NCBI GenBank assembly: GCA_963555755.3
Contig: OY820905.2
Coordinates: 3,552,001-3,616,000 of the forward strand
DNA: 64,000 nt
Reading direction: 5' to 3'
Origin: Nitrospirales bacterium
GTDB taxonomy: Bacteria > Nitrospirota > Nitrospiria > Nitrospirales > UBA8639
Positions 29,649 to 48,801 of the stretch are shown here, piece after piece; within the stretch, counting starts at the first letter, position 1, and every line of letters starts with the position of its first letter. Below the pieces are notes generated by a model. It was not told where the DNA came from. It saw only the letters and a list, made by a program, of their open reading frames with translations, and did not search any database. The position numbers were made by a program, and so were the translations under genes.

Positions 29649-29781
29649 ATCTTCTCCCTATTCCTTTGGTATGCCCGACACCACACAATCCCGGCATGTG
29701 CACCATGGGCCAGGTGAATCGGTGTCTTTACATTTGTACTCGGCTACGGCCCTTTCTGCAATACGGAATTCAAGCGGCCCC

Positions 29782-29809
29782 ATTATACGCTGCTCCATTC
29801 AGAGGTCAA
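29782..29809 (-). promoter_or_regulatory. sigma70-like promoter for xseB-tlyA (TTGACC-N16-TATAAT)
   Basis: - strand reads CTTGACCTCTGAATGGAGCAGCGTATAATG. Confidence 0.6.
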
Positions 29810-30020
29810 GGATTGGCAGAGGTCAAGGATTGGCAGAGGTCAAGGATTGGCAGAGGTCAAGGATTGGCAGAGGTCAAGGATTGGCAGAGGTCAAGGATTG
29901 GCAGAGGTCAAGGATTGGCAGAGGTCAAGGATTGGCAGAGGTCAAGGATTGGCAGAGGTCAAGGATTGGCAGAGGTCAAGGATTGGCAGAGGTCAAGGAT
30001 TGGCAGAGGTCAAGGATTGG
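29800..30020. repeat. perfect VNTR, 13 x 17 bp CAGAGGTCAAGGATTGG
   Basis: 221 bp equals 13 identical units. Confidence 0.97.
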
Positions 30021-31353
30021 CCAGCGGATCAACCCGTTCAATAAGACAGGACAACGATCCATCGGCAAGAAGCGCGCGAACCCGTTCTCCCGCTTGGACT
30101 TGAGTATGGCTTTTCACGATGTCCCCATTTGATTCTCGCTCGAGTACACTATACCCACGGGAGAGAATGGCGAGTGGGTTTAAGGTCTGCAGGGACATGG
30201 CAACAGTGCGAAACTGATGCCGTTTCGAACTCACCACCACCGGCATCGCCCTCTTCACTTGCGTGGAATATTGATGAACGAGCATCGATGCTCGTTTAAT
30301 GGTCTGATGAGGACTCCGCAGCATTAAAGCAGATGACAGGGCCATCAGGATCGGACGACGTTCCAGCTGTACACTTTTCATGGCACGTGTGAGGCGATGA
30401 TTCAAATCATCAATCCTCTGGACCTGCATCTGAAGAATATGCTGCGGATCAGGGAGCGCGCGATACGCCGCTCTGAACTGATGCCGAATCTTCACCAGTT
30501 GATTATGCATTCCCTGAAATACGCGCTCCCCATACACTTGTATTCCTCTGATTAACTCATCCAGGACTGGCGAGACTGCCTCCGCCGCCGCCGAGGGGGT
30601 CGGTGCACGATAGTCCGCCGCAAAATCAGCTAACGTCACGTCGATTTCATGACCAACGGCTGACACGACCGGGGTACGACAATCCGCGATAGCACGAACG
30701 ACTACCTCTTCATTAAAGCACCACAAATCTTCCCATGACCCACCACCTCGACCCACGATCATGACATCCACGTCGCCTTGATGATCACACCGCCTGATAG
30801 CCTCCGCAATTTGCTCTGCAGCCCCATCGCCTTGAACCAACACGGGATACAGCAGCACGCTGATTATGGGGCACCGACGGTGAAGAACCGTCAGAATATC
30901 GCGTAGCGCAGCACCGGTTTGTGAGGTGATGACACCGATTTTCCCTGGCAAAAACGGCAGCGATTGCTTGCGTGATGATTCAAATAATCCTTCTTTTTCG
31001 AGTTTCTCTTTGAGCTGTTCATACGCAAGCTGCAAGGCTCCCACGCCCTGAGGGTCAATGGAATCCACCAGCACTTGGTAGTCGCCTCGCGGTTCATACA
31101 CTGTCACTCTCCCGCGCACCACCACTTGGAGACCATTCTCCAAGGCAAATCTCAGCAGCACAGCGGTCCGACGAAACACCACCGCTCGAATTTGGCTCTT
31201 GTCGTCTTTCAGGGTGAAATACATGTGACCAGAGTTCGGCATGGCCAGATTCGACACTTCTCCTTGAACCCAAATACTGGAGAACGTGCGTTCGAGGGAC
31301 ATACGAATGTTGGTGGTAAGTTCAGTGACCGTAAGGGCAGTAGGTGTAGTCAC
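30010..31353 (-). CDS. xseA: exodeoxyribonuclease VII large subunit
   Basis: GEVSN...SGHMYFTLKD, GRGGGSWEDL, SAVGHEID, RAPTPSAAAE; likely GTG start at 31353. Confidence 0.97.
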   Translation of the reverse strand: MTTPTALTVTELTTNIRMSLERTFSSIWVQGEVSNLAMPNSGHMYFTLKDDKSQIRAVVFRRTAVLLRFALENGLQVVVRGRVTVYEPRGDYQVLVDSIDPQGVGALQLAYEQLKEKLEKEGLFESSRKQSLPFLPGKIGVITSQTGAALRDILTVLHRRCPIISVLLYPVLVQGDGAAEQIAEAIRRCDHQGDVDVMIVGRGGGSWEDLWCFNEEVVVRAIADCRTPVVSAVGHEIDVTLADFAADYRAPTPSAAAEAVSPVLDELIRGIQVYGERVFQGMHNQLVKIRHQFRAAYRALPDPQHILQMQVQRIDDLNHRLTRAMKSVQLERRPILMALSSALMLRSPHQTIKRASMLVHQYSTQVKRAMPVVVSSKRHQFRTVAMSLQTLNPLAILSRGYSVLERESNGDIVKSHTQVQAGERVRALLADGSLSCLIERVDPLANP

Positions 31354-33912: not shown

Positions 33913-34495
33913 GGCAGTCACCCCCTTCCTGGGCACTTCCTATGCCGACCCGGTTGCCCATAGATCGATAGAACAAGGGCAAATAGGCCTTCGTACACTT
34001 CCATCAATTTTTTTAGGGGATGTAGAAAAAAAACCCGGAGGAAAGCGGAGGAGTGAAAACGAGGCTAGAACAGATTCGCTACATTAAGAGTGGGACTGAA
34101 GTGTGAAAAACTGGATAATTTATGGTGAGTAATTGCCCATTCTATTGATTATTATCCAATGCTTCTCAACTTCATTCGTGACCAGCATGTATTGACTTCA
34201 CAGGTAGAGAGGTCAAAAACTGCTTCCTCTGTAGAAACAGCTCTCTCTTGGGCCATTTTGCTTGTAAGACGACACCTATCTCTCTCACTGTTCGACGATC
34301 TTGAACATCGAGTTTGCTCGATCACGCCCTCTTGTGTTTCAAAAATCCCACATTAACATTCCTCAAAAAATCCGTGCATACATTCCACATCCACTACAAA
34401 AACGTCATGTCCCTCTCAAATCGATAGAATTACTTTTTCTTCTCTCAAACGTTACCATGCCACCCTGCCTCTGGCAAGTAAGTAACCCTAAAGAG

Positions 34496-36399
34496 CAGGG
34501 CCATTTCATTCTTTTTATAAGCAAGGGATTCCATGAGGTTTTTTGTGCGCTCTTTTTCAGGGCAGGGCCATGCGGATGGCTAAATGGGGCTTGCCCCAGA
34601 GCAGTCTACACGCCTGCGCGATATTGGTGTAGCCTTTCAGGCGTAAGAGACTGATGGCATAGCGTCTCAGACAGGTCATGACCATTGGGCCATTGAGACT
34701 TCGTATCTGACTCCTGTCTTCATCAAAGGTGACGTCCAACACATAATGCTGCTTATTCTCCACACTCCAATGCTTTCGGTTTTGCGAGAGGATGGTCTTC
34801 GGCCCCGCCTTGTCTTTGGACTGACTCGTGACACCGCAGACCGCTTCGACGGTCGTGAGGCCCTGCTTGAGATGCGTCACTTCCCTCTCAATGCAGAAGA
34901 CTTGCTGGACATGAGGAAAGTTGACATAGGCATTCAGGGAGTCATCGCACCAGATCCTGCGGGTCGTGATCTGCCCATGGCCTTTCTCGGTGGTGGCATA
35001 ATCGCACCGGCGTGCTCGCAACGCTAAGGCCTCAATGTCGTGCTTCAAGGTGGGCTGGTTTCCCTTGACGGTGAAGACGAAGTCGGCGCCGCGTTCGTGC
35101 ACCAGGTACTCGGCAATCTCTTTCTGGGTGAGGAGCGCATCCGCCGTGATCACCTTCCCTGCGATCTCGAGCGCATCTAACAGGGGCCGCACGCAGGGGA
35201 TCTCATTGGTCTTGGAGTGAACTTTTTTTGGGTGAGGTGGCGCCCGGCTTGATGGGTGACGGCGCTGAGGACGTGGGTCTGTTCGCTTGGGACCTTCGAC
35301 GTCCCCCGCATGGTCTTCCCATCAATGGCAATGCCCTGATCCTCCCCGCCGAAGGTGTCCAGCCACCGGCCGAGCAGGGTATCGACTTCACAGGGGTCGA
35401 CGGCCGTGATAAAGCGGTAAAGAGTGCTGCGGCTCGGGACGAGGTAGCGCCCCCCTCGCTGAGTACAGCCTAGCCGCTTGCGCATCGGCTGCGATAACTG
35501 CTGGGCCCAGTCCGAGATCGCTTCATAGCCGCGCGCGCCGCACAAGGTGGCACAGAACATGATCGCCGTGAGGGCGCGTCGGGTGTGCCGTTGCCCTTGC
35601 AAATGGCGGGGATCGGTCAGCTGCACCACATACGTAAAGAGGGAGTCCGTCTGTTTTGTATTCAATCTCATCTGAGGCGCTTCTCCTTTCTGATAGGGCT
35701 GATCAAGCATCGGGCGTGCAAGGATCTCTCGGGCTTGGGGATGCAGCCGCACGACTAGGATGCGCTTCGGTCTCTCATGCTGAACATAACACGTGTTCGA
35801 CTTGCGAAACCCTCGTGTCAGACCGAGCTCGTGCCACCCGGCGGCCCGATAGCAGGTCCCGGTGAAGCGGGCAGGATCGACGAAGGTCTCTAAGAGGAGC
35901 AAGGGGTAGCCGTGGTACAGTTGCCAATCGGCCGAGATCCGTTTCGCGCAGAGCGACAGGACTTTCGAGGCGAGGTTCTTTTGCGAACAGCCCGGCAGCA
36001 TGAGAAACCGGGTGTTGTTGGCCAGTAAATGGAGTCGTTGCCATTGAAAACAGGGGGGCCAGCCGATCCAGTGGTCTCGCGGTCTCGATTTGAGGGCCGC
36101 CGCCGCAAACACCAGCAAGGCCAGCCAGCGATCCTGCACACAGGCGAGATATTGTATCGATTGGCCAATCAGCGGGGCATGACCGAGGTAGTGGTGTCTG
36201 TCGAGAAGGGTCTTGAAGGCGTCCTTTTCGTCTCGGACAATTGGGCGAACCACGACTTGCCTCAGATCAATGTCCGGCTGTCCGCTTGGCGATTCGTCTG
36301 GCATGCAAAAGAGTATGCCGTAAACGAAAAGAAAAAGCCAGCCTAAATCGATTATTCCTTATTATCTATAAAGTTACACTTTAATATGAAATAGCCCTG
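34496..36399 (-). mobile_element. ISAs1-family element encoding a DUF4338-fused transposase
   Basis: TIRs CAGGGC(C/T)ATTTCAT; 10-bp TSD CCCTAAAGAG (34486-34495 and 36400-36409). Confidence 0.92.
34557..36304 (-). CDS. DUF4338-ISAs1 transposase with a -1 frameshift at A-AAA-AAG (35222-35229)
   Basis: ORF 35177-36304 (HHYLG..RDHWIGW..GTCYRAAGW, then DPR and AIDGKT) joins the -1 frame K.NEI..ITADAL..VKGNQP..HWSVEN..LDVTFDED. Confidence 0.85.
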
Positions 36400-36401
36400 C
36401 C

Positions 36402-36698
36402 CTAAAGAGCAGAGTTACCGCCAATTTCGGCGTCAATACACCTTAAGAGCCCTGTCGCTCGCCGTTCAATTTCGGCCTCACCGGCCTGACGGCGACTTTC
36501 CTGCTGAAAGAGTTGGTCAGCAATGTTAATCGCCGCCAAAATCGCAACTTTGGTTGGGGTCGAGGTGGTCAAATTTTTGGCAATAGATTTCATCTGTCCC
36601 TCGACATACAACGCCAATTCATGCGCATAGTGCTCATCGCCATCGCCCTGAAGGGCTAACCGTTGACCAAAGACGTCCACCTCAACTGCGTTCGTCAC
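36402..36698 (-). CDS. zapA: cell division protein ZapA
   Basis: VEVDVFGQ...LA.YV...KVAILAAINIADQL. Confidence 0.92.
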   Translation of the reverse strand: MTNAVEVDVFGQRLALQGDGDEHYAHELALYVEGQMKSIAKNLTTSTPTKVAILAAINIADQLFQQESRRQAGEAEIERRATGLLRCIDAEIGGNSAL

Positions 36699-36948
36699 AG
36701 GCTACCTCTGGCAGTTCATTGTCCTGAGTTTCTAGAAAGTGCAGGTCATCCAAGACTTTTTCAATTCTGGTCCGAATGTGCGCACGTTCTTCTTCCCAAT
36801 CCTGAGAAAGCCCTTCCTGCTGATCAAGGTTTTGACGAGCTTGAGCTAATTCCTGTTGAAGCACACCATTGGCCTGTTTTAAATCTTGAACCATGTCAAC
36901 CAGTCGTTTGACTCGAACCTCCAGAGCTTCCAATTTTTCCAAGTCCAC
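36682..36948 (-). CDS. zapB: ZapB-like coiled-coil protein
   Basis: LEALEVRVKRLV...ER..IR.RIEKVL; directly upstream of zapA. Confidence 0.75.
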   Translation of the reverse strand: MDLEKLEALEVRVKRLVDMVQDLKQANGVLQQELAQARQNLDQQEGLSQDWEEERAHIRTRIEKVLDDLHFLETQDNELPEVACDERS

Positions 36949-36982
36949 AAGTATTACACCTTAGTTAATATACGCTTGTGAG

Positions 36983-37011
36983 ACTATAGAAGCTTCAACA
37001 ACCCTTGTCAA
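36983..37011 (-). promoter_or_regulatory. sigma70-like promoter for zapB-zapA (TTGACA-N17-TATAGT)
   Basis: Read on the - strand, overlapping the slt 3' end. Confidence 0.6.
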
Positions 37012-39238
37012 GAGAAGAACCACTACATCTAGTAGAATAGAGGTCTCGATACACATGATAGCTGGTCAATACACGCTTCACATACCTCCTCGTTTCTTTA
37101 TAGGAAATGAGTTCCACAAATTCATCAGCTTCCCGGTGGCCATTCTTATTCACCCAACGCTTGACAGCATTCGGCCCGGCATTATAGGCCGCAATCACTC
37201 GAATCACTTTTCCATCATTTTCCCCGAGCAATTGTCTCACATACTGAACACCCAATTGAATGTTGATTTTGCCAGAAAATAAATCTTCTCGCTCGATGGA
37301 CGATAGACCAATCCGATTCGCGACTCGCTGTGCGGTGGCCGGCATGAGTTGCATCAGGCCAATGGCACCCACCGGTGAAAGAGCTTGGGGATTATACAAA
37401 CTTTCCTCGCGAATAATCCCGGCAATGAGATACGGATCAACCTGGGAGTCGGCATAATGTTGAATGGTGGGAAGGTACCCATTGGGATAGGCCATAGACC
37501 ATAAGGCCGAAGTACGGGGTACACGGTGGCGTTCAACAGCGTCTCGAAAATGCCGCCTGGCAATCAGAAGCGCCTGGTCGTAGGCTTTGACCTCTCCTAA
37601 TTGAACAGCAATTTTGAACAACACACCCTGTGTTGATCGAAACGTTTTGCTCACACGCAACAGTTCACCAGTCGCCTCCTCCATCAAGCCAAGAATGGCC
37701 AGTTCCTGGGCCTTCTGGTAGTGGCGATCGTGTTCCAAAAGAGTACGAGTGCTGGAAGACATATCAGGTTCTTGAAGGAACACCTGTCCTGTCCCCCGTG
37801 AATCAATCGGCCGGGAAACAAGCCGAGTTTGCGCGAGTTGCCCATAATAGGTCATGGGAAATTCTTGGAATACTCGCCGATAGTGTTCTTGCGCCTTCTC
37901 ATGTAACCCAAGGTTCGCCAATGAACGGCCAGCCCAATATTGGGCTTGGGCTTCCCTACGCCAGCCTTTGGCCTGTTTGAGTATACGTGCGAATACCTGG
38001 TGAGCCTTCTGAAAATCCTCTTGTTGATAGTACAACCATCCCTGACGCCACATGGCATCGAAACGTGCTCGGGAAGACCCAGCAAGGTCAGCTGCCCGTT
38101 GATAGGCCTTTACGGCTTTTTGAAATGCGCCCTGATCTTCGTACCAAATCCCGCACATCCATTGGATCTGAGAACGTTCACTGGATTTCACCCCGGAAAG
38201 ACGCGATTGACTCAGCCCAATTAACTGGGCACCTTGCCCTTGCCGAAGGTACACTCGAGCCAGCCATTCGGTGGCTTGCCCACGGTAAGACGTTCGTCCT
38301 TGCGACAACCTGAGAAAGAGTTGCTGTGCCTGAGGATATTGCTTGAGACGCACATGGGCCATGGCTAATTTAAATTGTCCCTTCTCAAGACTCGGACTGG
38401 CAGGACGCCCCTTCAAAAATCGTTTCAGATCGGCAATCGCCGATTCAAAATGCGCCTGATCATAATAGGCTTTGGCACGACGGAAATAATCTCCTAAGGA
38501 GGGCTTCCAGAAACCTTGGATCACGTGGCCTTTTTTAACATCCTCATGAACGGTCTTGGCTTCAGGGGAAAGGGGATACCGCCACCACAATTTACGCAAG
38601 GTATCGATGGCCAATTGGGGTTGATCCAGCACTCTGGCGCAATCAGCAATGACCTGCAACGCACCAGGGGCATCATCCGAATCAGGGTCGAGTGCCAGGG
38701 CTTTCTGAAGATGGTGAATCGCATGATGACATTGCCCCGCTTCGTGCCAAGCAAAACCTCCACCAAAATGTATCTCCTTCTTCAGGATTGATTGCGGTTC
38801 CTGCTCCAAAATCGACTCAAAGGTGGCAGCGGCCTGTTGACTCAAATCCGCATCACGCAACGCCTGCGCAATCCACACCCGAATATAATCCCGGAGAAGA
38901 GGAAAGTTTTTTTCTGCGTCTTGCAGATACGGTAAGGCTTGGGATGGTTGAGTCTCGAGCAGGATATGTCCCAATCGGAGGCCCGCACGGTTACCCCATT
39001 CCGATTCAGGATATTGCTTCTGGATTTCTTCCAAATGTGAAAGGCGTGTGTCGATGTCCTGGGAATGGCGTTCCGCGATGTCGAGGGCACGATAGAAACA
39101 TTCCTTCGCGGTTTGACAACGCACGTCTGGAACGTCAGGTTCGGGCAAGGTTTGTGCCCCAGTGAAAAAGAAAATCAGCAGGACACCGCTCAGTCCCCCA
39201 AAGATCGGTAGCTGAAACCTGTGACGAAAGCTCTTCAT
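36995..39238 (-). CDS. slt: soluble lytic transglycosylase with TPR repeats
   Basis: IREES, GAIGLMQLMP.TA, AAYNAG, ETRRYVKRV; N-terminal signal/TM and TPRs. Confidence 0.9.
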   Translation of the reverse strand: MKSFRHRFQLPIFGGLSGVLLIFFFTGAQTLPEPDVPDVRCQTAKECFYRALDIAERHSQDIDTRLSHLEEIQKQYPESEWGNRAGLRLGHILLETQPSQALPYLQDAEKNFPLLRDYIRVWIAQALRDADLSQQAAATFESILEQEPQSILKKEIHFGGGFAWHEAGQCHHAIHHLQKALALDPDSDDAPGALQVIADCARVLDQPQLAIDTLRKLWWRYPLSPEAKTVHEDVKKGHVIQGFWKPSLGDYFRRAKAYYDQAHFESAIADLKRFLKGRPASPSLEKGQFKLAMAHVRLKQYPQAQQLFLRLSQGRTSYRGQATEWLARVYLRQGQGAQLIGLSQSRLSGVKSSERSQIQWMCGIWYEDQGAFQKAVKAYQRAADLAGSSRARFDAMWRQGWLYYQQEDFQKAHQVFARILKQAKGWRREAQAQYWAGRSLANLGLHEKAQEHYRRVFQEFPMTYYGQLAQTRLVSRPIDSRGTGQVFLQEPDMSSSTRTLLEHDRHYQKAQELAILGLMEEATGELLRVSKTFRSTQGVLFKIAVQLGEVKAYDQALLIARRHFRDAVERHRVPRTSALWSMAYPNGYLPTIQHYADSQVDPYLIAGIIREESLYNPQALSPVGAIGLMQLMPATAQRVANRIGLSSIEREDLFSGKINIQLGVQYVRQLLGENDGKVIRVIAAYNAGPNAVKRWVNKNGHREADEFVELISYKETRRYVKRVLTSYHVYRDLYSTRCSGSSLDKGC

Positions 39239-39625
39239 TCCCTTACGAGGCTCCTACGGAATTGCGACACTCACGTATACACTATTGATCTTCGCCATTA
39301 TTGGTGGACCATTCAAAAAGATCAACGCACATTTTTTTCGCAAAATCAATAACAGACTACCTGTTAGTCTTGTCTCCCCTCAATCATCTGTTGTCCAAGG
39401 AGAGCAAAATCGAAGGGCAGGAAAAGATCGATCCGTTATGTTCGGTTTCTGTTCAACTCTTAACAATATCGGTAAACGAGTGAGGTGTGTTAAGATTTTT
39501 CCCTCTGGGCACAGGATCATTCAACCTAGAAACGGCAGTTGGATCACAAAAGTCTGCGCAAGCTCTTGTTGGATCATACGGAATGGATGGTTCCAGATAT
39601 AGGGGCTGTTGAATATATCGCGTCA

Positions 39626-40637
39626 TATGCCTTCCCATTTAACTAAGGTTGCTTCAGTTTATTGAATCCCAAGGGTTTTGAGCTGCTGGTCAGGATTTTC
39701 AACAAACTCTGGAAGGTACTCATTGGAGTCTCACGGCGGTTATAGCGAAAGACAAACTCATCAAGATAGTGTTGCAGGTATTTTGAATCCACTCCATGGT
39801 GAATCCCGTTCAGCCAGGTCTGCAGATTGCCGAACGCTCTATGGATGTGTGGAGCGTGCTTCCCAGCACTTGCTGGGTCACCCTGGGTCCGTCTCAGGTG
39901 TTCGTATCCTGCCAAGGCTTTTGCCGAGTATCCCTTCCAACCATCGGACTTGATCTTACTGCCCTCAGCGACATGGCTATTGAGGAATGCTTTGATCTCG
40001 TTCTCTCCAGCGTCTTGAAGAATCGCTAATCGTAAACGCCCTGCTTTCTCTCGAAAGTGATCCCCTTGTGTGTACGTGACAATTTCTACGGCTCCGGCTA
40101 TTAACGTCTTGGTTTTCGCTTTCGCGACGCCACGGCCCGTTTTGCCTTTTACCGGTCCACCGATATGGGTTTCATCGGCTTCAACTGTTCCTGCGAGCCG
40201 TTCACGGTTCTGTCGTACCATTCCTCGTCGCAATCTGTGGAGCAAATACCAGGCGCTATCCACCTTCTTGATACTGAGTTGACGCTGCAATTGCACAGCA
40301 CTGATGCCAGGTGTGTGCGTGGAGACGAAATAGGCAGCCCAAAACCAAAGCCGTAGCGGCAAGTGCGATCTATGCATCACTGTGCCGCTTAGCGGTGATG
40401 TCTGTCTATGACACGACGAACACTCAAACCGGAAATATTTTTTGAGCCACCAACCACCGCGATGACCGCAAGCTGGACACATAAACCCGTCTGGCCACCG
40501 AATCGCCCGCAAGTACTCGAAGCACGCTTCTTCGGTGTGGAACCTAACAGAAAAATCCAAGATATCAGCAGCATACCCTGTGTCCATAGTCCAGCAGACT
40601 AGTCTAGGGACTAACCTTAGTCAAATGGGAAGGCATA
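39626..40637 (-). mobile_element. IS1595-family element inserted in a family A MITE tail
   Basis: TIRs TATGCCTTCCCATTT(A/G)ACTAAGG; 8-bp TSD TCGCGTCA. Confidence 0.92.
39643..40587 (-). CDS. IS1595-family transposase
   Basis: Zn ribbon CPAC..CSSC, VEADET, SDGWKGY, YLDEFVFRYNRR. Confidence 0.95.
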   Translation of the reverse strand: MDTGYAADILDFSVRFHTEEACFEYLRAIRWPDGFMCPACGHRGGWWLKKYFRFECSSCHRQTSPLSGTVMHRSHLPLRLWFWAAYFVSTHTPGISAVQLQRQLSIKKVDSAWYLLHRLRRGMVRQNRERLAGTVEADETHIGGPVKGKTGRGVAKAKTKTLIAGAVEIVTYTQGDHFREKAGRLRLAILQDAGENEIKAFLNSHVAEGSKIKSDGWKGYSAKALAGYEHLRRTQGDPASAGKHAPHIHRAFGNLQTWLNGIHHGVDSKYLQHYLDEFVFRYNRRETPMSTFQSLLKILTSSSKPLGFNKLKQP

Positions 40638-40688
40638 TCGCGTCATTTGCAAATAAATGCCCTAGAGGAGCCAAGCATTGTCAAGGGG

Positions 40689-40811
40689 AGGGAATGTTCA
40701 AAAAAGATCGTCCAGCAAGGCCGCAGCCGTTTTGACGCGCGGAGCGTACTCATAGTACGTGAGCACGGCAAAAGGGCGAGAACGCCGCTGGCGGCTTTTT
40801 TCAACATTCCC
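40689..40811. mobile_element. MITE family A core
   Basis: GGGAATGTTCAAAAAAG...CTTTTTTCAACATTCCC; its tail extends to 39602 across the IS1595. Confidence 0.8.
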
Positions 40812-40823
40812 ATATATGAATTG

Positions 40824-40845
40824 GTAGGGTGGGCATCGCCCACCA
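40824..40845. repeat. GTAG-class REP-like palindrome GTAGGGTGGGCATCGCCCACC
   Basis: Inverted copy at ~49107-49128. Confidence 0.7.
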
Positions 40846-41676
40846 ATAACCACGTACCAAAGATAGCGGAGCAGTCTGCGACCCCCAGACCCACATGAAG
40901 CGCTGTTGGCAACCCATCCGCGTTCTATTTGGTGGCTAGTGGATACCCTCTTTCTCTTGTGTCGCTGCACGATCTCATCGTGCAGCGACACAAGAAAGAA
41001 TGCTCATACGAAGGAGAGGCAGGGGCAAAAAGTTCCCTGTATTCAGATTGAGATGGTGGTAGGGGTAGAACCATGAATTCTGTATGATCCCTTTTTTTGC
41101 GCACAACTGCCGTTTCTAGGATTATGAAATCCAACTTCGATATCACGGACCAGTTGCAAATTTGGTGGAATTGGGACCTATTCCATGGCCCGCCGGAGGT
41201 CATGGGGATCGTGTTGGGGGGGCACAGCCTGCTCAGGCGTGGCGGGAATGGCGAGATTTCTCCCATCCTCCTTCGCCAGAGCTTCGGCGGACAAGGGGGT
41301 CGAAATGACAAGAGGGGGAAGGGGTAAGAAGCAAGTCTGGTTGGAGGAACAACCTAGAAGGCTCCCTTCTGTCATTTCGAGTGCAAGGAGAAATCTCTTG
41401 GCCCGAAAGAACGTGACCCGGGCGGGCATGGGGGAGAGTTCCTCGAAGGGTCGAAATGACAACGGACGACGTGTGATACGGGCGAAGCGTAATAGAGTTT
41501 AGCCTACCTCCACCAAAATTGAGATTGATCCGATATCACTCAGCTCTCCAAAGAAGAAAAACTGGATCAATCGCAATTTTGGTGGAGGTAGGTGAAACCC
41601 TCGTTGATTAATCCCGTGAAGGGTCTGTCCCAAACCATAGCGCTATTCCAAACGTCCTGAGTCAACAAAACATTGA

Positions 41677-42005
41677 GGGCCTGTTGAATATCTCACACCA
41701 ATAGCCCATAAAAGCTTCAGATGAGCCCGGCATTTTCAAGGGGAGGGAATGTTCAAAAAAGCATGCCCTGAGTCTTTCCGAAGGGTCTATCCAGTCCTGT
41801 CCTGAGCAGAGTCGAAGGAAAGGCCGCAGCCATTTTCACGCGCGGAGCGTACTCTCAGTACGTGAGCACGGCAAAAGGGCGACCTGCCTACGCGAAGCCG
41901 CTTCGGCAGGCATGGAACCGCTGGCTTGTCAGCCGTAGCTTTAGCGCTCGTCCGCCGAAGCTTTTTGCGAAGGCGGGAAGGCTGGCGGCTTTTTTCAACA
42001 TTCCC
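41677..42005. mobile_element. MITE family A long form with nested palindromes
   Basis: GGGCCTGTTGAATA...GGGAATGTTCAAAAAAG...TTTTTCAACATTCCC with inserted CCTGAG..CGAAGG and GCCGAAGC..GCGAAGGC hairpins. Confidence 0.7.
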
Positions 42006-42410
42006 AATATCTAAAGCGCAAACTCCAACGCCAACCGTCCTGCGGCTTGGGTTTCATCCCCACTCATCGCGGTATAGTCCATGCCAAGCAGCAGGTGCGT
42101 ACGGTCATGTATCTCCAGGCGGAGGGACGCGCCAAGGCTGCCACCATAGACGCTGTCATCACTGGCTGAGGTAAAGCGAAAGTCACTGCCGGAGAGGGTG
42201 GCGTGGATGTCGTCGTCATAGGTGTGTCGGGCGAGTACGCCGGCCCGGAGTTCGAGATGGCTGGTGTCGAGGGTGTAGCGGGCGGCCAGTTGGAGACGGC
42301 TCTGCAGGGCGTGGACGGTGCGGTTGTCGATGCTGAGGTTGGAGCGGGTGGTGCCGGTTTCCCGGTAGGCGTCATACCAGGCGATGCTGTAGGCGAGGGT
42401 GGCTTGGGGG

Positions 42411-44988
42411 CAATGGCATTCGTTTAAGGAATGGGCGGCATTCGTTTAAGGATTTGGCTCATTCGTTTAAGAAACGGATTCCATGTGCTTAAGGGACTTT
42501 CAGATAGAGGCCATCGACCCTGTGGGGTTCTTGGACTGGCTGTTCTTTTTGGGTGGATGCCACGTGGACTCCGGTTTCATGGATGTTCGAGGATAGGATC
42601 GGCCCGGCCTCACCCGTTGGTAGTGACTCACAATGGACTCGAAGGCCCGTTGGACGGCGGTCTGCATCCGAGCATGGAGCACGAGCAGATCTTCGAAGCT
42701 TCGCGCAAACACGTGAAGGCAATGTTTGAAGTTGGTCTTGAATGTCCGCCTCGCCCCGGTGCCGGTTCCAACTATGGACGATCCGGGAGGGGCCATGGGC
42801 TCAGCTGCGGGGGCTTCGGGATTGAGTGCGTGGTCCGCCCGATTGGCGAACAGCCGGTTCATGGTGATCAGGACGAAATGCGCGAAGAGCTCTTGTTTGA
42901 CGCCGCGCTCGGTTTTGGCATGAAACTCCTCGATGAGGAACAGGCGCTTGCTCACCTTGTAGAGTTCCTCGATGCCCCAACGGGCATGGTAGAGATCCAT
43001 GAACTCCTGGAGCGGATACCGCTGCTGGGGGCCGACCAGGGTGGTGCCCAAGCAAAATCGGCTGCCGGCCATCTCATATTTCAGAAGCCGCAGGCTCAAC
43101 GGGATGATGGCGAGATCAGGATAGACCGCCCGGATGTCTCGTTGCGTGCGTGCGGCGGGGAAGAGGGTGACCGTGGTGTCGGTGTCCGGGCCGGCAAAAA
43201 ACTCTTGAATCTCCTTGAACCCGCTGTCTTGGAGACGAAACACGGCGTGGATCCCGGCGGTCCAGTGCTGATGCAGCAGGACGTAGGAGAAATAGCCTCG
43301 ATCGTACACCACGACATCGTTGGGCTTCAGCACAGCCAGGTGCCGCAGGGCGCACCGTCGCTCGTTGCCATGCGCGACGAGGTCGAAATCCCAGGGCACT
43401 TGCGACGTGAGGTGGTAGAGGCAACTCAGCAACCCTTGAGGATAGTGTGCATTGTCAGAGGGCAAGGGGTAGCCACACGCCCGCAACGCGCGGGGCAGTG
43501 TAAGCTTGGAGCCATCGACGGCAAACACCCGATGGCCCAACCAGGTGTCGTTGGAGTCGTGTGGGGCATAGGCGTCCAGAATGTTCCGGTTGACGGACTG
43601 GAAAATGGCTTCGTCCAGTTTGCGACGTGCGACACAAAAGGACGCCGGCGCGATGCTGTGGGGTTGCGGGAGCGCGAGCGCCAGGTTGTCGCAACTGTCC
43701 CACAAGTCATCAATGGTGGTGCCGTAACTTTGGGAGTTGGTTGACGACACCAACCGAAAGATCAACAGCATCAGGATCAGGGAATCGATCACCCGTTTCC
43801 GGACGCGCCACTGGTCATCGTACTGGGCCGCCACGTCGTGGAGGATGTGGACCACCTGTTTCCACCAGGCGACAAACCCTTCCCCGACGGACCGTGTGCG
43901 ACTGGCTCGCACGTCGTTGCGATAGCGTGTCTTCACCGTGACGGCTCGATGCCCGGCAGTCAGGCACGCGCGCCAGTCGGGTTGGAGCGGATAGAGAAAA
44001 ATCTCTTTTGTCGTGGGTGGACGGTCCGACGTTGAGCCAAACCGCCCGCGCCCCTCGGTGTAGCCCACGAAGTGCCAATTGGCCGCTCGATAACAGGTCC
44101 CGGCAAACCGGGAGGGATCGATGAACGTTTCAATCAGCACCGGGCGATAACCGTAGACTTCAACCCAGTCGTCCCCGATCTGCTTGGTGGCCCGCGCCAG
44201 CACATGGCTGGCGAGATTCGGCACGTCAATCCACGGAAAGATCAAAAACCGATCATTGCGCAACACCAATGGCAGGAGCTTCCTCCGGTGCGTCACGTCC
44301 CAGCCAATCCAGTGATCTCTGGGGGCCAGCGCCCAGGCGGCCGAGGCCGAAAACAGCAGACAGCCCAGCGGGTACGGCTGGGCGGCCGATCTCACCAGAT
44401 AGCCCAGCTGGGCCCCGATCGGGTGTTTATAGCCCAAATAATGATAGGTCTGCAGGTAGGCTTTCCAGCTCTCGCGTTCCTCTTTCGAGACCACCCGGTG
44501 CAGGGTAATTGGGGCCACGGCGGCGAGGGTGTCGGTGAGTGGCTCGGTGGGGGGCGGCTCGTGAAACGCAGGGATGGGGTGTCCCGGCGCGCGCTTGTGG
44601 CGCGTGGCCGGCAGAGTCACGATCCCGTGCGCTTCCAGCTCGGTCAGCAAGGTCAAACAGGAATGAATCTTGTTGTGGCCCGTCGGCGTGGTCCAGCTGA
44701 GATGCTCACAGACGGTGAGGGCCAATTCCTTCCGACTCAGGTGGGGGAACAGCTGGACGGTTTCTTGGACCTGCGCCAACTGCTTGCGGGTGAACCGCCG
44801 CCCGCTAAAGGTCGTCTTGGGTAAGGTGTCCACAGTCTTCATCGAGGATAGTCTCTCAGAAGACGGAAAAGAAGTCAAGCGAAAAAGGACACCAGGGCGA
44901 CTTCGGTTCAGAAGCCCTGATCAATCAACCAGTTCCGCTGATAACAGAGAAGGCAGATTGTTCGTTCGAACCAAACCGAATGCCATTG
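42411..44988 (-). mobile_element. IS4-family element encoding a DUF4338-fused transposase
   Basis: TIRs CAATGGCATTCG(T/G)TT; 10-bp TSD GGCTTGGGGG (42401-42410 and 44989-44998). Confidence 0.93.
42500..44842 (-). CDS. DUF4338 plus IS4 DDE transposase fusion (~780 aa)
   Basis: YHYLGY..RDHWIGW..NLAS..ETFIDP..GTCYRAANW, then FAVDGS, YDRGYFS, YHARWGIEELYK, RPGRSYPR. Confidence 0.9.
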   Translation of the reverse strand: MKTVDTLPKTTFSGRRFTRKQLAQVQETVQLFPHLSRKELALTVCEHLSWTTPTGHNKIHSCLTLLTELEAHGIVTLPATRHKRAPGHPIPAFHEPPPTEPLTDTLAAVAPITLHRVVSKEERESWKAYLQTYHYLGYKHPIGAQLGYLVRSAAQPYPLGCLLFSASAAWALAPRDHWIGWDVTHRRKLLPLVLRNDRFLIFPWIDVPNLASHVLARATKQIGDDWVEVYGYRPVLIETFIDPSRFAGTCYRAANWHFVGYTEGRGRFGSTSDRPPTTKEIFLYPLQPDWRACLTAGHRAVTVKTRYRNDVRASRTRSVGEGFVAWWKQVVHILHDVAAQYDDQWRVRKRVIDSLILMLLIFRLVSSTNSQSYGTTIDDLWDSCDNLALALPQPHSIAPASFCVARRKLDEAIFQSVNRNILDAYAPHDSNDTWLGHRVFAVDGSKLTLPRALRACGYPLPSDNAHYPQGLLSCLYHLTSQVPWDFDLVAHGNERRCALRHLAVLKPNDVVVYDRGYFSYVLLHQHWTAGIHAVFRLQDSGFKEIQEFFAGPDTDTTVTLFPAARTQRDIRAVYPDLAIIPLSLRLLKYEMAGSRFCLGTTLVGPQQRYPLQEFMDLYHARWGIEELYKVSKRLFLIEEFHAKTERGVKQELFAHFVLITMNRLFANRADHALNPEAPAAEPMAPPGSSIVGTGTGARRTFKTNFKHCLHVFARSFEDLLVLHARMQTAVQRAFESIVSHYQRVRPGRSYPRTSMKPESTWHPPKKNSQSKNPTGSMASI

Positions 44989-45889
44989 GGCTTGGGGGTG
45001 GAGTGTCAGTCCTTGATCGAGGGTGTAGGCGGTGGTGAGGCTGAGCGCGGGGCTGAGGAAGCCGCTGTCAAAATCGGTGCGGGCTATTTCTATGCCGGCG
45101 AGGTTGTCGATGACCCGGCGGTGGTTGTCATGTTGTTCATAGCCGCCGAGTAGCGAGGCGGTGAGGGCTAAGGGGCCGAGGTGAATCTGCGCATAGCCAC
45201 CGACAAAGAGGCTGTCGGTATCGGTGCTAATGGATTGCCGTTCGGTGTCGATGTCAGACTGGGCAGCCCCGCCAAAGACACCGAGACGGGTGTGTTGGAC
45301 GTTGGTGTCGTAGCCGCCCATGAGGCCGGCGTAGTCGTGGTCGTAGGCGAGGGCCTGGCCTTCGGCGCCTCGATGGCGGTGGGCGCCGAAGAGTTGGCCC
45401 CATGCTTGCGAGGGGCGCGGCTGAACCAGGAGGCCGGGCGTGAGTCGGATCGTGGCAAGTTGTATCTTGGCGGGGGCCGGTTGGGTCAGGCGGTGTTGGA
45501 TTTGTTCATGGAGGCCACCAGTGAAGGTCGCGAGGACGGCACTGTGAACGGATTGTCCTGTGGGGTCGACGAGGGTGGCGACGGTGCCGTTGTGTATCCC
45601 GGCAACGCCATTGAGGAGGTTGATGGTCTCGGCATTGTCCAAGGTCAGTGTGGCGGAGGGGTTGGCGCCGTAGATGTTGACGGTGTCGTTGCCACCAGCT
45701 AAATCTATACGGCCGATGATGTGCGAGCCGCGATAGAGATTGAGCGTTTCGGCACCGGTTCCCCCCAGGATAGCGGTGGTGGCGTTGCCGGTGGCTGAGA
45801 TGAGGCCGTGGTTGTAGATGGTGGTGGTGTTTCCGGCCCCGTCGGCAGAAATCCCCACCGCATCGGGGCCGGTGACGTTAATGCTGCCG

Positions 45890-46510
45890 CTGTTCGTTAT
45901 CGTGGCGTTGTCGCCTATTGACCGGATGCCGTGAGCACCCTCACCAATCGTCGAGATGGTCCCGCTGGTCGTTATCGTGGCGTTGTCGGCTTCTGACTGA
46001 ATGCCGCTAGCATTGTTACCCGTCGTCGAGATGGTCCCGCTGGTCGTTATCGTGGCGTTGACGCGTTCTGACTGGATGCCGCTAGCATTGTTACCCGTCG
46101 TCGAGATGGTCCCGCTGGTCGTTATTGTGGCGTTGTCGCCGAATGACTGGATGCCGCTAGCATTGAAACCCGTCGTCGAGATGGTCCCGCTGGTCGTTAT
46201 CGTGGCGTCGTCGCCTCCTGACTGGATGCCGTTAGCACCGTCACGCGTCGTCGAGATGGTCCCGCTGGTCGTTATCGTGGCGTCGTCGCCTTCTGACTGG
46301 ATGCCGCTAGCATTGGTACCCGCCGTGGAGATGGTCCCGCTGGTCGTTATCGTGGCGTTGTCGCGGACTGACTGGATGCCGTGAGCCCCGGTACCCGCCG
46401 TGGAGATGGTCCCGCTGGTCGTTATCGTGGCGTCGTCGCCGAGTGACTGGATGCCGTGAGCATTGCCACCCGTCGTCGAGATGGTCCCGCTGGTCGTTAT
46501 TGTGACGTTG
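45890..46510 (-). repeat. 8 x 75-bp (25-aa) coding tandem repeat TITTSGTISTxGxxAxGIQSxxDxA
   Basis: GAGATGGTCCCGCTGGTCGTTAT recurs every 75 bp from 45953 to 46478. Confidence 0.93.
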
Positions 46511-47349
46511 TCGGCGGTTGACGCGATGCCGAAACCGCCTGCCACATTAAGCTGCCCCCCAGCCTCGATCACCCCGGTTTCATTGTCGTTGTCGAGCGTC
46601 TGCGTCGTGGTCTCCACCTGCCCCTCGCTAATCGTAAACGAATCTGCCTGGACACGGGCTGTAGCACCCCCTATCACGATTATCAGACAGACACTCAACG
46701 CGGCCTGTGTATATTTCATATTGGGACCTGGCCTCCACTATATCCATTTTATGGATGTTCATTGGACCTATGATGACAATCTACTCCATGTCAAATAAAT
46801 ATATATGAACCGAAATAATAAGGCAATCAATCATTGCTTATAACCATTTTTGCCACCACAATAGGTATTTTTACACTATGGTCGGTCTGCAGGAGTCGCT
46901 CATCGGGCTGAAACCAAAACGGTCCTTCTCAGCCCGCATCTTCATTGAAACTAGAAACGGCAGTTGGGCGCAAAAAAGACGTGGAAGCTATTGGCGTGCA
47001 TGGTGAAATACAAAAAGTCGTGGTCACCTTAGGTCTGTCATTTCGAGTGCAAGGAGAAATCTCTTGGCCCGAAAGAACGTGACCCGGGCGGGAATGGGGG
47101 AGAGTTCCTCGAAGGGTCGAAATGACAACGGACGACGTGTGATACGGGCGAAGCGTAATAGAGTTTAGCCTACCTCCACCAAAATTGAGATTGATCCGGA
47201 ATGTTCAAAAAGGCCGTCCAGTCCTGTCCTGAGCCATGTCGAAGGGAAGGCCGCAGGGCTTTTGGCGAGTGGAGTGTACACGGAGTACGTGAGCACGCCA
47301 AAAGCCCGACCTGCCTGCGCGAAGCCGCTTTCAGCCTTATATAATACTC

Positions 47350-47577: not shown

Positions 47578-48801
47578 ATGCCACGGTATTACATGGGAGT
47601 GGATTGGGGCGATGAGCAGCATGGGGTCTGTGTGCGAGAGGAGGCGGGCTCCATTGTGTGGGAGGACCTGGTACCCCACACGCCGAAGGGTTTGCAGGAG
47701 TGGGGACGGCGTTTGGATACCTGGCGTGCTGCGGGGATCGAGCTGTGGGCGGCCATTGAGCGACCCGAGGGGCGGGTGGTGGAGTTCTTGTTGGATCATG
47801 GGGTGGTGGTGTATCCGATGAATCCGAAAGCGCTGGATCGGGCTCGGGATCGCTTCCGTATGAGTCCGTCGAACAGCGATGGCTTTGATGGGCGGGTGCT
47901 GGCCGAGGTGCTGCGAACCGATCATGCCCATCTCCGGCCGCTGCAGCCCAGTTCGGAGGCCGCGCAAGAATTGAAACTCCTCACCCGGGATCATAAGCGC
48001 TTGCAGCAACAACAAACCCGGGGCCTGAACCAACTCACGAGCACGCTGAAGGACTACTATCCCCGGGTGCTGGACCTGTTTGGCGACCTGACCACGCAGG
48101 TGGCCCTGGATTTTCTGCAAACCTATCCGACCCCGGCCGCGTTGACGACAGTGCGGCAGAGTCAGTGGCAGCGTTTTGCGCGTGCGCATCGGCTGGGGCC
48201 GGCGCGCACGGCGGAGTTGTGGGACGAGCTCAAGGCGCCCCAGATGCCCGTCCCCGCACATGTGGTGCGGACCAAGGCCCGGCTGATGGGCGTGCTGGTC
48301 GGCCAGGTTTTGCTCGCTCACCGAGCCGTGCGGGAGTATCACACGGAGATCGAACGTTTTTTCGCGACCCTCCCGGCGGCTGAGTGGATGCAGAGTCTGC
48401 CGGGAGGGAAAAGTGGGACCACGATTCCCAGTGTGTGGGCCGAACTGGGCGATGCTCCGGGCCGCTGGACCTCGTGGGCTCACCTGCAGGCGGAAGCGGG
48501 GACCGTGCCCGTCACGCGGCAGAGTGGCAAAAGTTGCGTGGTGCGGTTCCGCTTTGCGTGTAACAAGTCCCTGCGGCAGGCCATCTGGTGGGTGGCCTTT
48601 CAGTCGCTGACCCAGAGTGAGTGGGCCAAGAGTGACTATCAGCAGTGTCGGGCTCGCGGGCACCGGCATAATCAGGCGATGCGCGCCTTGGGGGCGAAAT
48701 GGCTGAAAATCATTTTTCGGATGTGGCAGCATCAGGTTCCCTATGATGAGCAATATCATGTAGCAAACATGACCAAGCAATACCTACGTGCAACTGCGTA
48801 A
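47578..48801 (+). CDS. IS110-family recombinase
   Basis: RuvC-like GVDWG, AIE, SDGFD; C-terminal VPVTRQSGKS catalytic-Ser motif; AGGAG RBS. Confidence 0.95.
   Translation: MPRYYMGVDWGDEQHGVCVREEAGSIVWEDLVPHTPKGLQEWGRRLDTWRAAGIELWAAIERPEGRVVEFLLDHGVVVYPMNPKALDRARDRFRMSPSNSDGFDGRVLAEVLRTDHAHLRPLQPSSEAAQELKLLTRDHKRLQQQQTRGLNQLTSTLKDYYPRVLDLFGDLTTQVALDFLQTYPTPAALTTVRQSQWQRFARAHRLGPARTAELWDELKAPQMPVPAHVVRTKARLMGVLVGQVLLAHRAVREYHTEIERFFATLPAAEWMQSLPGGKSGTTIPSVWAELGDAPGRWTSWAHLQAEAGTVPVTRQSGKSCVVRFRFACNKSLRQAIWWVAFQSLTQSEWAKSDYQQCRARGHRHNQAMRALGAKWLKIIFRMWQHQVPYDEQYHVANMTKQYLRATA

Follow-up and report, generated by a model that had tools for sequence, protein, structure and literature searches.

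In a 64,000-nucleotide stretch of a Nitrospirales genome (contig OY820905.2 of GCA_963555755.3, positions 3,552,001 to 3,616,000; hereafter the window), two insertion sequences (ISs), one of the ISAs1 and one of the IS4 family, encode transposases accompanied by the same PF14236/DUF4338 domain, which is predicted to adopt a GNAT fold and whose closest solved structure is Mom, the Gly-tRNA-dependent adenine N6 hypermodifier of phage Mu. These elements constitute a variant of known IS families that is real, widespread, under selection and apparently unstudied; its function is predicted from models. To our knowledge, simple ISs have not been known to carry a DNA-hypermodifying enzyme of their own. 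The proposal that a tRNA-dependent enzyme of this kind is common to, and exchangeable among, at least six IS families, as a transposon counterpart of Mom serving restriction shielding or self-control of jumping, with DruA of Druantia as a catalytically altered offshoot, is given slightly less than an even chance. No description of a DUF4338-transposase fusion was found in the literature searched, outside which lay the Mom-family surveys of Iyer et al. (2009 and 2013) that may mention transposase-linked members; the DUF4338 plus DDE architecture is already labelled in databases.

The domains of the two elements share 39% identity over 200 aa (E 2e-36), and both proteins exceed the PF14236 gathering cut-off of 27 (95 and 126 bits; E 6e-27 over residues 14-167 in the ISAs1 protein and E 2e-36 over residues 110-281 in the IS4 protein). 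This bears out a sequence-only reading of the window, which had recognized a common DUF4338 domain from motifs that are all found in both proteins, and which placed the elements, their terminal inverted repeats (TIRs) and the 10-bp target duplications exactly (Table 1). That reading also had both proteins starting with the domain, which holds for ISAs1, whereas in IS4 a helical module of about 100 residues precedes it. To call the two families unrelated, as was done there, is too strong, as PF01609 is matched by both transposases. ISAs1 elements are defined by CAGGG-type TIRs and an 8-10 bp target duplication, and the window element has both; its C-terminal frame scores 136 bits against NF033564 (cut-off 70) and its N-terminal frame 56 bits, with contiguous profile positions (3-118 and 129-314). 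The IS4 transposase reaches 153.8 bits against NF033592 (cut-off 115), which places it in that family.

Both elements have been recently active. The genome contains 39 full-length ISAs1-GNAT copies, 32 of them at >99% identity, with a 9-11 bp duplication present at 28; contig 1 holds 11 full-length IS4-GNAT copies, nine with a target duplication, two of these within poly-C. Depth over the ISAs1 element exceeds that of its flanks more than 30-fold in two unlabelled public runs, consistent with its copy number, and two RNA runs span it, these being contigs that may contain DNA.

The resemblance to Mom-like GNATs, also anticipated in the sequence-only reading, is upheld by structure prediction. 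The model of the ISAs1 domain, built from a 104-row alignment, reached a predicted local distance difference test score (pLDDT) of 92.8 and a predicted template modelling score of 0.88. Its top Foldseek match was Mom (8BV8, E 9.1e-9, template modelling score 0.60; next non-Mom match 4.9e-7), and Mom was again first among 48,161 chains compared with VIA-align (Z 14.8, root-mean-square deviation 3.7, 164 residues aligned; next GNAT 12.7). With the weaker IS4 model, Mom was also at the top (Z 7.6), and the helical module of that model matched 8B9X (Z 5.8, root-mean-square deviation 2.1, 62 aa); we take this module to be a winged helix, which is likely. A first fold of IS4 residues 1-320, made from a shallow alignment (pLDDT 70.6), had no match in Foldseek at E 0.001. 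The PDB gave none when searched by sequence, and single-sequence hhalign to Mom was weak (probability 2%).

Profile alignment of 266 IS domains with 113 Mom homologues pairs H38/Y39, S113, D143, R146 and Y152 with Mom H58/Y59, S124, D149, R151 and Y159. In the accessible part of PMC13219725, to which all statements from this source refer, mutation of H58, Y59, R111, S124, D149, R151 or Y159 cripples Mom. The catalytic residues are kept in 110-113 of the 113 Mom rows, and among the 266 IS domains H38 is found in 264, R99 in 266 and S113 in 265; E139 and Y152 served to cut the domains, which makes their invariance circular. The equivalent of R151 varies in the IS4 forms (R in 78, K in 19 and H in 16 of 121). 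The invariant R99 precedes S113 by 14 residues (13 in Mom), and from this spacing and its strand position it is probably the equivalent of Mom R111. GNATs are marked by a CoA loop motif, [QR]xxGx[GA]. It was present in none of the 256 domains in which motif A could be located, which makes a charged tRNA the probable donor. The window proteins do not match the Mom family PF25680 at E 5, while some relatives do: the one at locus L028 passes with up to 29.3 bits (cut-off 27.1), and others score 19-27 bits. The IS domain differs from Mom in being borne by ISs, often fused to a transposase, and is known here from sequence and model; judging by the model, it likely works like Mom although it is not filed as such. 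The accessible text of PMC13219725 mentions neither transposons nor DruA.

The equation of the domain with Druantia DruA, made in the sequence-only reading, is contradicted by PADLOC scores, by the tree and by the active site. The IS domain and type I DruA belong to the same Pfam family, have the RD..IGW segment in common and align with a profile probability of 95%. No window protein matched the PADLOC DruA models at E 0.01, and with model PDLC00002 genuine DruA scores 276-599 bits, related IS-borne forms 16-18 bits or nothing. The IS domain covers only about positions 36-224 of the 297-position PF14236 profile, and DruA has W-S in place of H-Y, G in place of S, no D, and R in two of four sequences. 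In a tree of 60 rows (28 drawn at random from the ISAs1 and IS4 match lists, the remainder from survey loci), 56 IS-type domains are parted from four DruA by a 100/100 branch, the longest in the tree. Supported branches set apart the domains of ISAs1, of IS4 and of IS50, each group on one side, and two changes are needed for those of IS66; best-match sampling favours such clustering, and the midpoint root shows no donor. Because DruA has lost residues that the IS form keeps, the latter is probably not a DruA derivative, by parsimony with Mom as the outgroup. This offers a testable reading of DruA as a GNAT that lost the Mom-type residues. Pfam-based counts of Druantia are inflated by ISs, as full-length DruA accounts for only 4/30 and 2/30 of the top "DruA" loci in two phylum samples. 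The accessible part of PMC10853773 calls DUF4338 a GNAT fused to DndF. No dru genes lie near the elements, as had been noted before: between the TIRs there are only GNAT and transposase frames, and the neighbours are rny, zapA, an autotransporter gene and other ISs. A Druantia system was absent from the genome by the one model tried (best PDLC00002 match 19 bits), the DruB-E models not having been run genome-wide.

Loci with a PF14236-type domain number 75 in this genome by domain matches: 46 ISAs1, 14 IS66, 13 IS4 and 2 IS50. The IS66-type element (2413 bp, 14 copies, 8-bp duplications) carries the domain as a separate gene ahead of TnpC; in the copy at L001 (contig 1 3889992-3892404), two genes are seen, helical module plus GNAT and then TnpC, with no tnpA or tnpB and with AT-rich 8-bp targets. 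The front end of each of the two IS50/Tn5-type fusions adjoins another repeated element. In other genomes, IS701 and ISKra4 are further carriers. The survey found PF14236 in 30/201 host-phylum genomes and in 34/201 from a second phylum, and all 14 control genomes lacked it. The top 30 host-phylum loci comprise 4 full-length DruA, 18 in or beside a transposase gene, 4 transposase-free and 4 unresolved fragments; the 18 divide into IS66 (6), IS50 (6), IS701 (3), ISAs1 (1), IS4 (1, from this genome) and an ISKra4-like form below the cut-off (1). Two of the top 30 loci of the second phylum span the full DruA profile; among 23 of the other 28 that were examined, 16 are IS-linked, 5 have no transposase within 1.5 kb and 2 are unresolved. 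The 16 consist of IS66 (5, one below cut-off), ISKra4 (4), IS4 as two frames (2), IS701 (2), IS50 (1), ISAs1 (1) and a weak IS1182/IS5-like match (1). The domain also occurs as a gene of its own, on either side of IS66 TnpC and ahead of ISKra4, so fusion to the transposase is not required. In place of the independent capture by two families that was first proposed, the sequences fit better with one IS-borne lineage exchanged among at least six families of transposases than with two captures from Druantia.

At four loci (L015, L016, L019 and L020), a transposase-free helical-module plus GNAT gene with intact catalytic motifs is flanked by genes for a pyridine-nucleotide oxidoreductase and DUF3443, both being seen at three of them and DUF3443 alone at L016; these copies are possibly domesticated. 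Other searches were less informative: a single-protein scan of the genome contigs returned three loci only, a profile search of 50%-representatives (37,550 matches at E 0.001) gives no domain count because the profile includes transposase columns, and the ESM Atlas returned only DruA-labelled clusters.

The GNAT module is under purifying selection, which is the opposite of the neutral decay across copies named beforehand as the refuting case. The ratio of nonsynonymous to synonymous substitution rates (dN/dS) between the window ISAs1 copy and seven diverged copies, which are not independent, is 0.24-0.28 for the GNAT part and 0.13-0.26 for the transposase part; the single diverged IS4 copy gives 0.22 and 0.35, respectively. 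Both families have DDE transposases, short TIRs and 9-10 bp duplications, the window elements differing from typical members by the additional GNAT module. In addition, the GNAT-bearing ISAs1 transposase is split by a conserved frameshift site, in contrast to the single-frame genes of GNAT-less ISAs1 (L118-L120). The A AAA AAG junction is kept in 39/39 full-length copies, and the product predicted from a -1 shift at this junction, of about 582 aa, would regain the conserved KTNEIP motif. Of 82 related ISAs1 loci, 40 could be classified: 18 leave the frame at the A6G site (18/18), 20 do so at a second site, which has a T/C run in 18 of them, and 2 are in frame, while the other 42 are incomplete (32), lack the motif (6) or are otherwise unclassed (4). 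ISAs1 forms of 535-560 aa were considered as in-frame fusions and rejected, since many carry an N-terminal helical module yet stop at the second shift site, and the C-terminal motif occurs in only 2/120. No strong stem-loop follows the slippery site (-10.3 kcal/mol, without a shuffle control). If shifting occurs, both sites would yield a GNAT plus end-binding protein more often than the whole transposase.

Judged by the modelled fold and residues, the GNAT module is very probably catalytically active, and DNA is the moderately favoured candidate for its target. It would transfer an aminoacyl or acyl group onto DNA bases, drawing, as Mom does, on a charged tRNA rather than acetyl-CoA. Delivery to DNA might fall to the helical module or to the end-binding half of the transposase, in place of the helix-turn-helix (HTH)-like insert of Mom, and in ISAs1 a programmed shift would make the GNAT plus end-binding protein the main product and the full transposase rare. 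Such modification could keep host nucleases from attacking the element and its carrier DNA at a change of host, the benefit being anti-restriction during horizontal transfer. Mom itself protects DNA against more than 20 restriction enzymes (PMC7261163, accessible part). By this analogy, anti-restriction is the foremost, though tentative, candidate for the purpose of the module, and a Mom-like base-modifying transferase that aids survival of the element against nucleases in new hosts is proposed with the same reserve. If active, the enzymes would represent a new counter-defence or self-control strategy of transposons and a large set of candidates for base modification, from which unknown modified bases in environmental bacteria could derive. 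With its 75 loci from four families, this genome is exceptionally well suited to testing the idea.

Several observations weigh against this proposal. The IS-to-Mom profile probability is only 50.7% (E 1.6e-4, identity 13-18%), by sequence the IS domain is nearer to DruA, and hhalign paired R99 with Mom R104 rather than R111. The HTH-like insert of Mom (residues ~175-209) is missing from the IS domain, where a gap of about 20 columns corresponds to a short hairpin in the model, and the IS domain has its own RDxWIGW insert. According to PMC13219725, deletion of the Mom insert abolishes activity, and substrates are not predictable from structure. Overexpression of Mom is lethal (PMC7261163, accessible part), and 75 loci would therefore need tight control. 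Transposition here does not generally depend on the domain, since IS4 elements of 1469 bp that lack the GNAT, present in at least 12 near-identical copies, show equal activity in the same genome. Finally, matches to the ISAs1 domain were obtained in 2/72,556 plasmids and 0/50,697 phages; spread on known vectors is thus poorly supported, with the reservation that the hosts are under-represented in these collections.

An unlikely alternative is that the domain modifies DNA to control transposition, marking element ends or target DNA so as to set the timing of jumps, restrict them or confer target immunity. Dam methylation controls the jumping of IS10 and IS50 in this manner. The domain is tied to transposase genes in most loci and is tethered to the end-binding half of the transposase, a form predicted to be in excess through two separate frameshift sites. 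Such control is harder to reconcile with the unrelated end sequences of the four families and with the transposase-free copies that persist in conserved synteny, and ISAs1 insertions in tandem beside existing copies (contig 1 89417/91331 and 1120295/1122209) argue against strong target immunity.

Equally improbable is an acyl- or aminoacyltransferase whose substrate is RNA or protein, such as tRNA, the transposase or a host factor, and which might serve as a mild addiction toxin or a regulator. The residues in common are the Mom-specific set, including the invariant arginine at the likely position of R111, which is conserved in Mom and not across GNATs (PMC7261163, accessible part); besides, the elements, of 1.9-2.6 kb, show no further small gene that could encode an antitoxin. 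Still, the Z score to ordinary GNATs is only about 2 below that to Mom, and the DNA-binding insert of Mom is absent. GNATs of this fold act on tRNA and proteins (PMC13219725), and Rakesh et al. interpret DUF4338 on DndF as a protein-targeting co-effector (PMC10853773, accessible part).

That the domain descends from Druantia DruA and travels as a mobile, self-sufficient anti-phage cargo to the benefit of the host is quite improbable, and a weaker option than a role in transposition or in resisting restriction. The IS domains form a separate clade with at most 18 bits to PADLOC DruA, they retain residues that DruA, by parsimony with Mom as the outgroup, has probably lost, and the 75 loci track IS expansion, not defence-island placement; the Pfam name, the strong profile similarity to DruA and the transposase-free copy kept between the same two genes in four genomes speak for it. 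Very improbable, finally, is a non-catalytic domain (for nucleic-acid binding or targeting) or a neutral passenger: catalysis is predicted only and GNAT-less relatives transpose, yet dN/dS is 0.22-0.28 and the polar residues are near-invariant across six IS families. Nor does the domain determine where elements insert, since targets differ among the three multi-copy carriers and promoters are targeted in its absence as well.

Such targeting of promoters is a second, directly testable lead. Outside the ISAs1 element of the window lies a sigma70-like host promoter whose -35 box starts 18 bp from the element end (Table 1). A -35/-10 pair with the -35 box beginning 17-19 bp beyond the element end is present at 14 of 69 distinct ISAs1 flanks, compared with 0.57% of random sites; offsets 17-19 account for 14 of the 26 pairs that lie within 80 bp (binomial 7e-14). 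No other repeat family of the genome shows a promoter-offset peak, and IS4- and IS66-borne GNAT copies have promoter pairs at 0/22 and 0/28 flanks at a score of 1 or better. For GNAT-bearing ISAs1 of other organisms, 5/40 candidate ends, some of them false, reach a score of 2 or better. GNAT-less ISAs1 in genome G258 (L250-L262) have TTG or TTT at offset 19 in 5/7 right ends, as judged by eye, and a score of 2 at 2/13 ends; another GNAT-less element (L157) has TTTACA-17-TATAAT at offset 19. The GNAT domain was accordingly rejected as the cause: other carriers show no targeting, and because GNAT-less ISAs1 elements share it, insertion 17-19 bp upstream of -35 boxes is a trait of ISAs1, not the task of the GNAT. 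Elements of this genome face the promoter either way; in G258 the right end faces it.

No description of ISAs1 promoter targeting was found in the literature. IS1548 reportedly prefers to insert close to promoters or terminators. In PMC5005324 (accessible part), a promoter region with one IS1548 insertion is described. The Mutator-like elements TnGBS, ISLre2 and ISKra4 likewise insert upstream of housekeeping promoters with a constant spacing to the -35 box, but they have an unrelated transposase and a distance of 15-17 bp instead of 17-19 bp; the accessible part of this report (PMC3942029) does not mention ISAs1.

Table 1. Features of the two GNAT-bearing elements (positions in the window)
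Feature	Position	Strand	Remarks
ISAs1-family element with Mom-like GNAT (PF14236) domain	34496..36399	-	1904 bp
ISAs1 terminal inverted repeat	34496..34509, partner 36386-36399		CAGGGCCATTTCAT / CAGGGCTATTTCAT; 13/14 positions matching
ISAs1 10-bp target duplication	34486..34495, second copy 36400-36409		CCCTAAAGAG
ISAs1 ORF1	35177..36304	-	375 aa; GNAT domain and DDE_Tnp_1_assoc N-terminal transposase half with first D (DGK)
ISAs1 Mom-like GNAT domain	35714..36265	-	residues 14-197; H38, Y39, R99, S113, D143, R146, Y152
A AAA AAG slippery heptamer	35222-35228	-	putative -1 shift would join ORF1 to transposase remainder
-1 frame	34557..35228	-	C-terminal DDE part of ISAs1 transposase
Host sigma70-like promoter outside ISAs1 element	34449..34477	-	-35 TTGCCA 34472-34477, 17-bp spacer, -10 TAACGT 34449-34454; consensus match only
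IS4-family element	42411..44988	-	2578 bp; inside autotransporter gene
IS4 terminal inverted repeat	42411..42422, partner 44977-44988		CAATGGCATTCG; 12/12 matching
IS4 10-bp target duplication	42401..42410, second copy 44989-44998		GGCTTGGGGG
IS4 single open reading frame	42500..44878	-	792 aa from TTG; helical module, GNAT and IS4 DDE transposase
IS4 N-terminal helical module	44597..44797	-	residues 28-94; also in IS66- and IS50-borne forms
IS4 Mom-like GNAT domain	43964..44521	-	residues 120-305
IS4 DDE transposase core	42851..43717	-	residues 388-676; NF033592

The start of the IS4 reading frame is likely the ATG at 44842 (780 aa), as in homologues. At its left end (42411-42470), the IS4 element contains CATTCGTTTAAG three times; these repeats are possible transposase-binding sites. 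The autotransporter gene interrupted by this element (44908-46719 and left of 42411) has 75-bp tandem repeats, and the frame of the empty site would comprise 706 aa. Elsewhere, the same repeated GC-rich intergenic element holds five of the 11 IS4-GNAT copies (contig 1 575944, 1962179, 3276805, 3296386 and 3637257), and two further copies lie in poly-C runs. ISAs1 copies are arranged head-to-tail in tandem at contig 1 89417-93234, 987418-991234 and 1120295-1124112, with one target duplication between copies, which implies repeated use of the same site.

The region of about 500 bp between the targeted promoter and rny (33936-34445), downstream of zapA, has no long open reading frame. 6S RNA often lies downstream of zapA. 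No Rfam match was obtained in this region or in the window between 33500 and 47500. Transposase genes of IS1595 and IS110 are located near both elements (39643-40587 and 47578-48801), and the genome is rich in other multi-copy ISs. Just beyond xseA, a 17-bp tandem repeat extends over about 12 registers (29766-30055).

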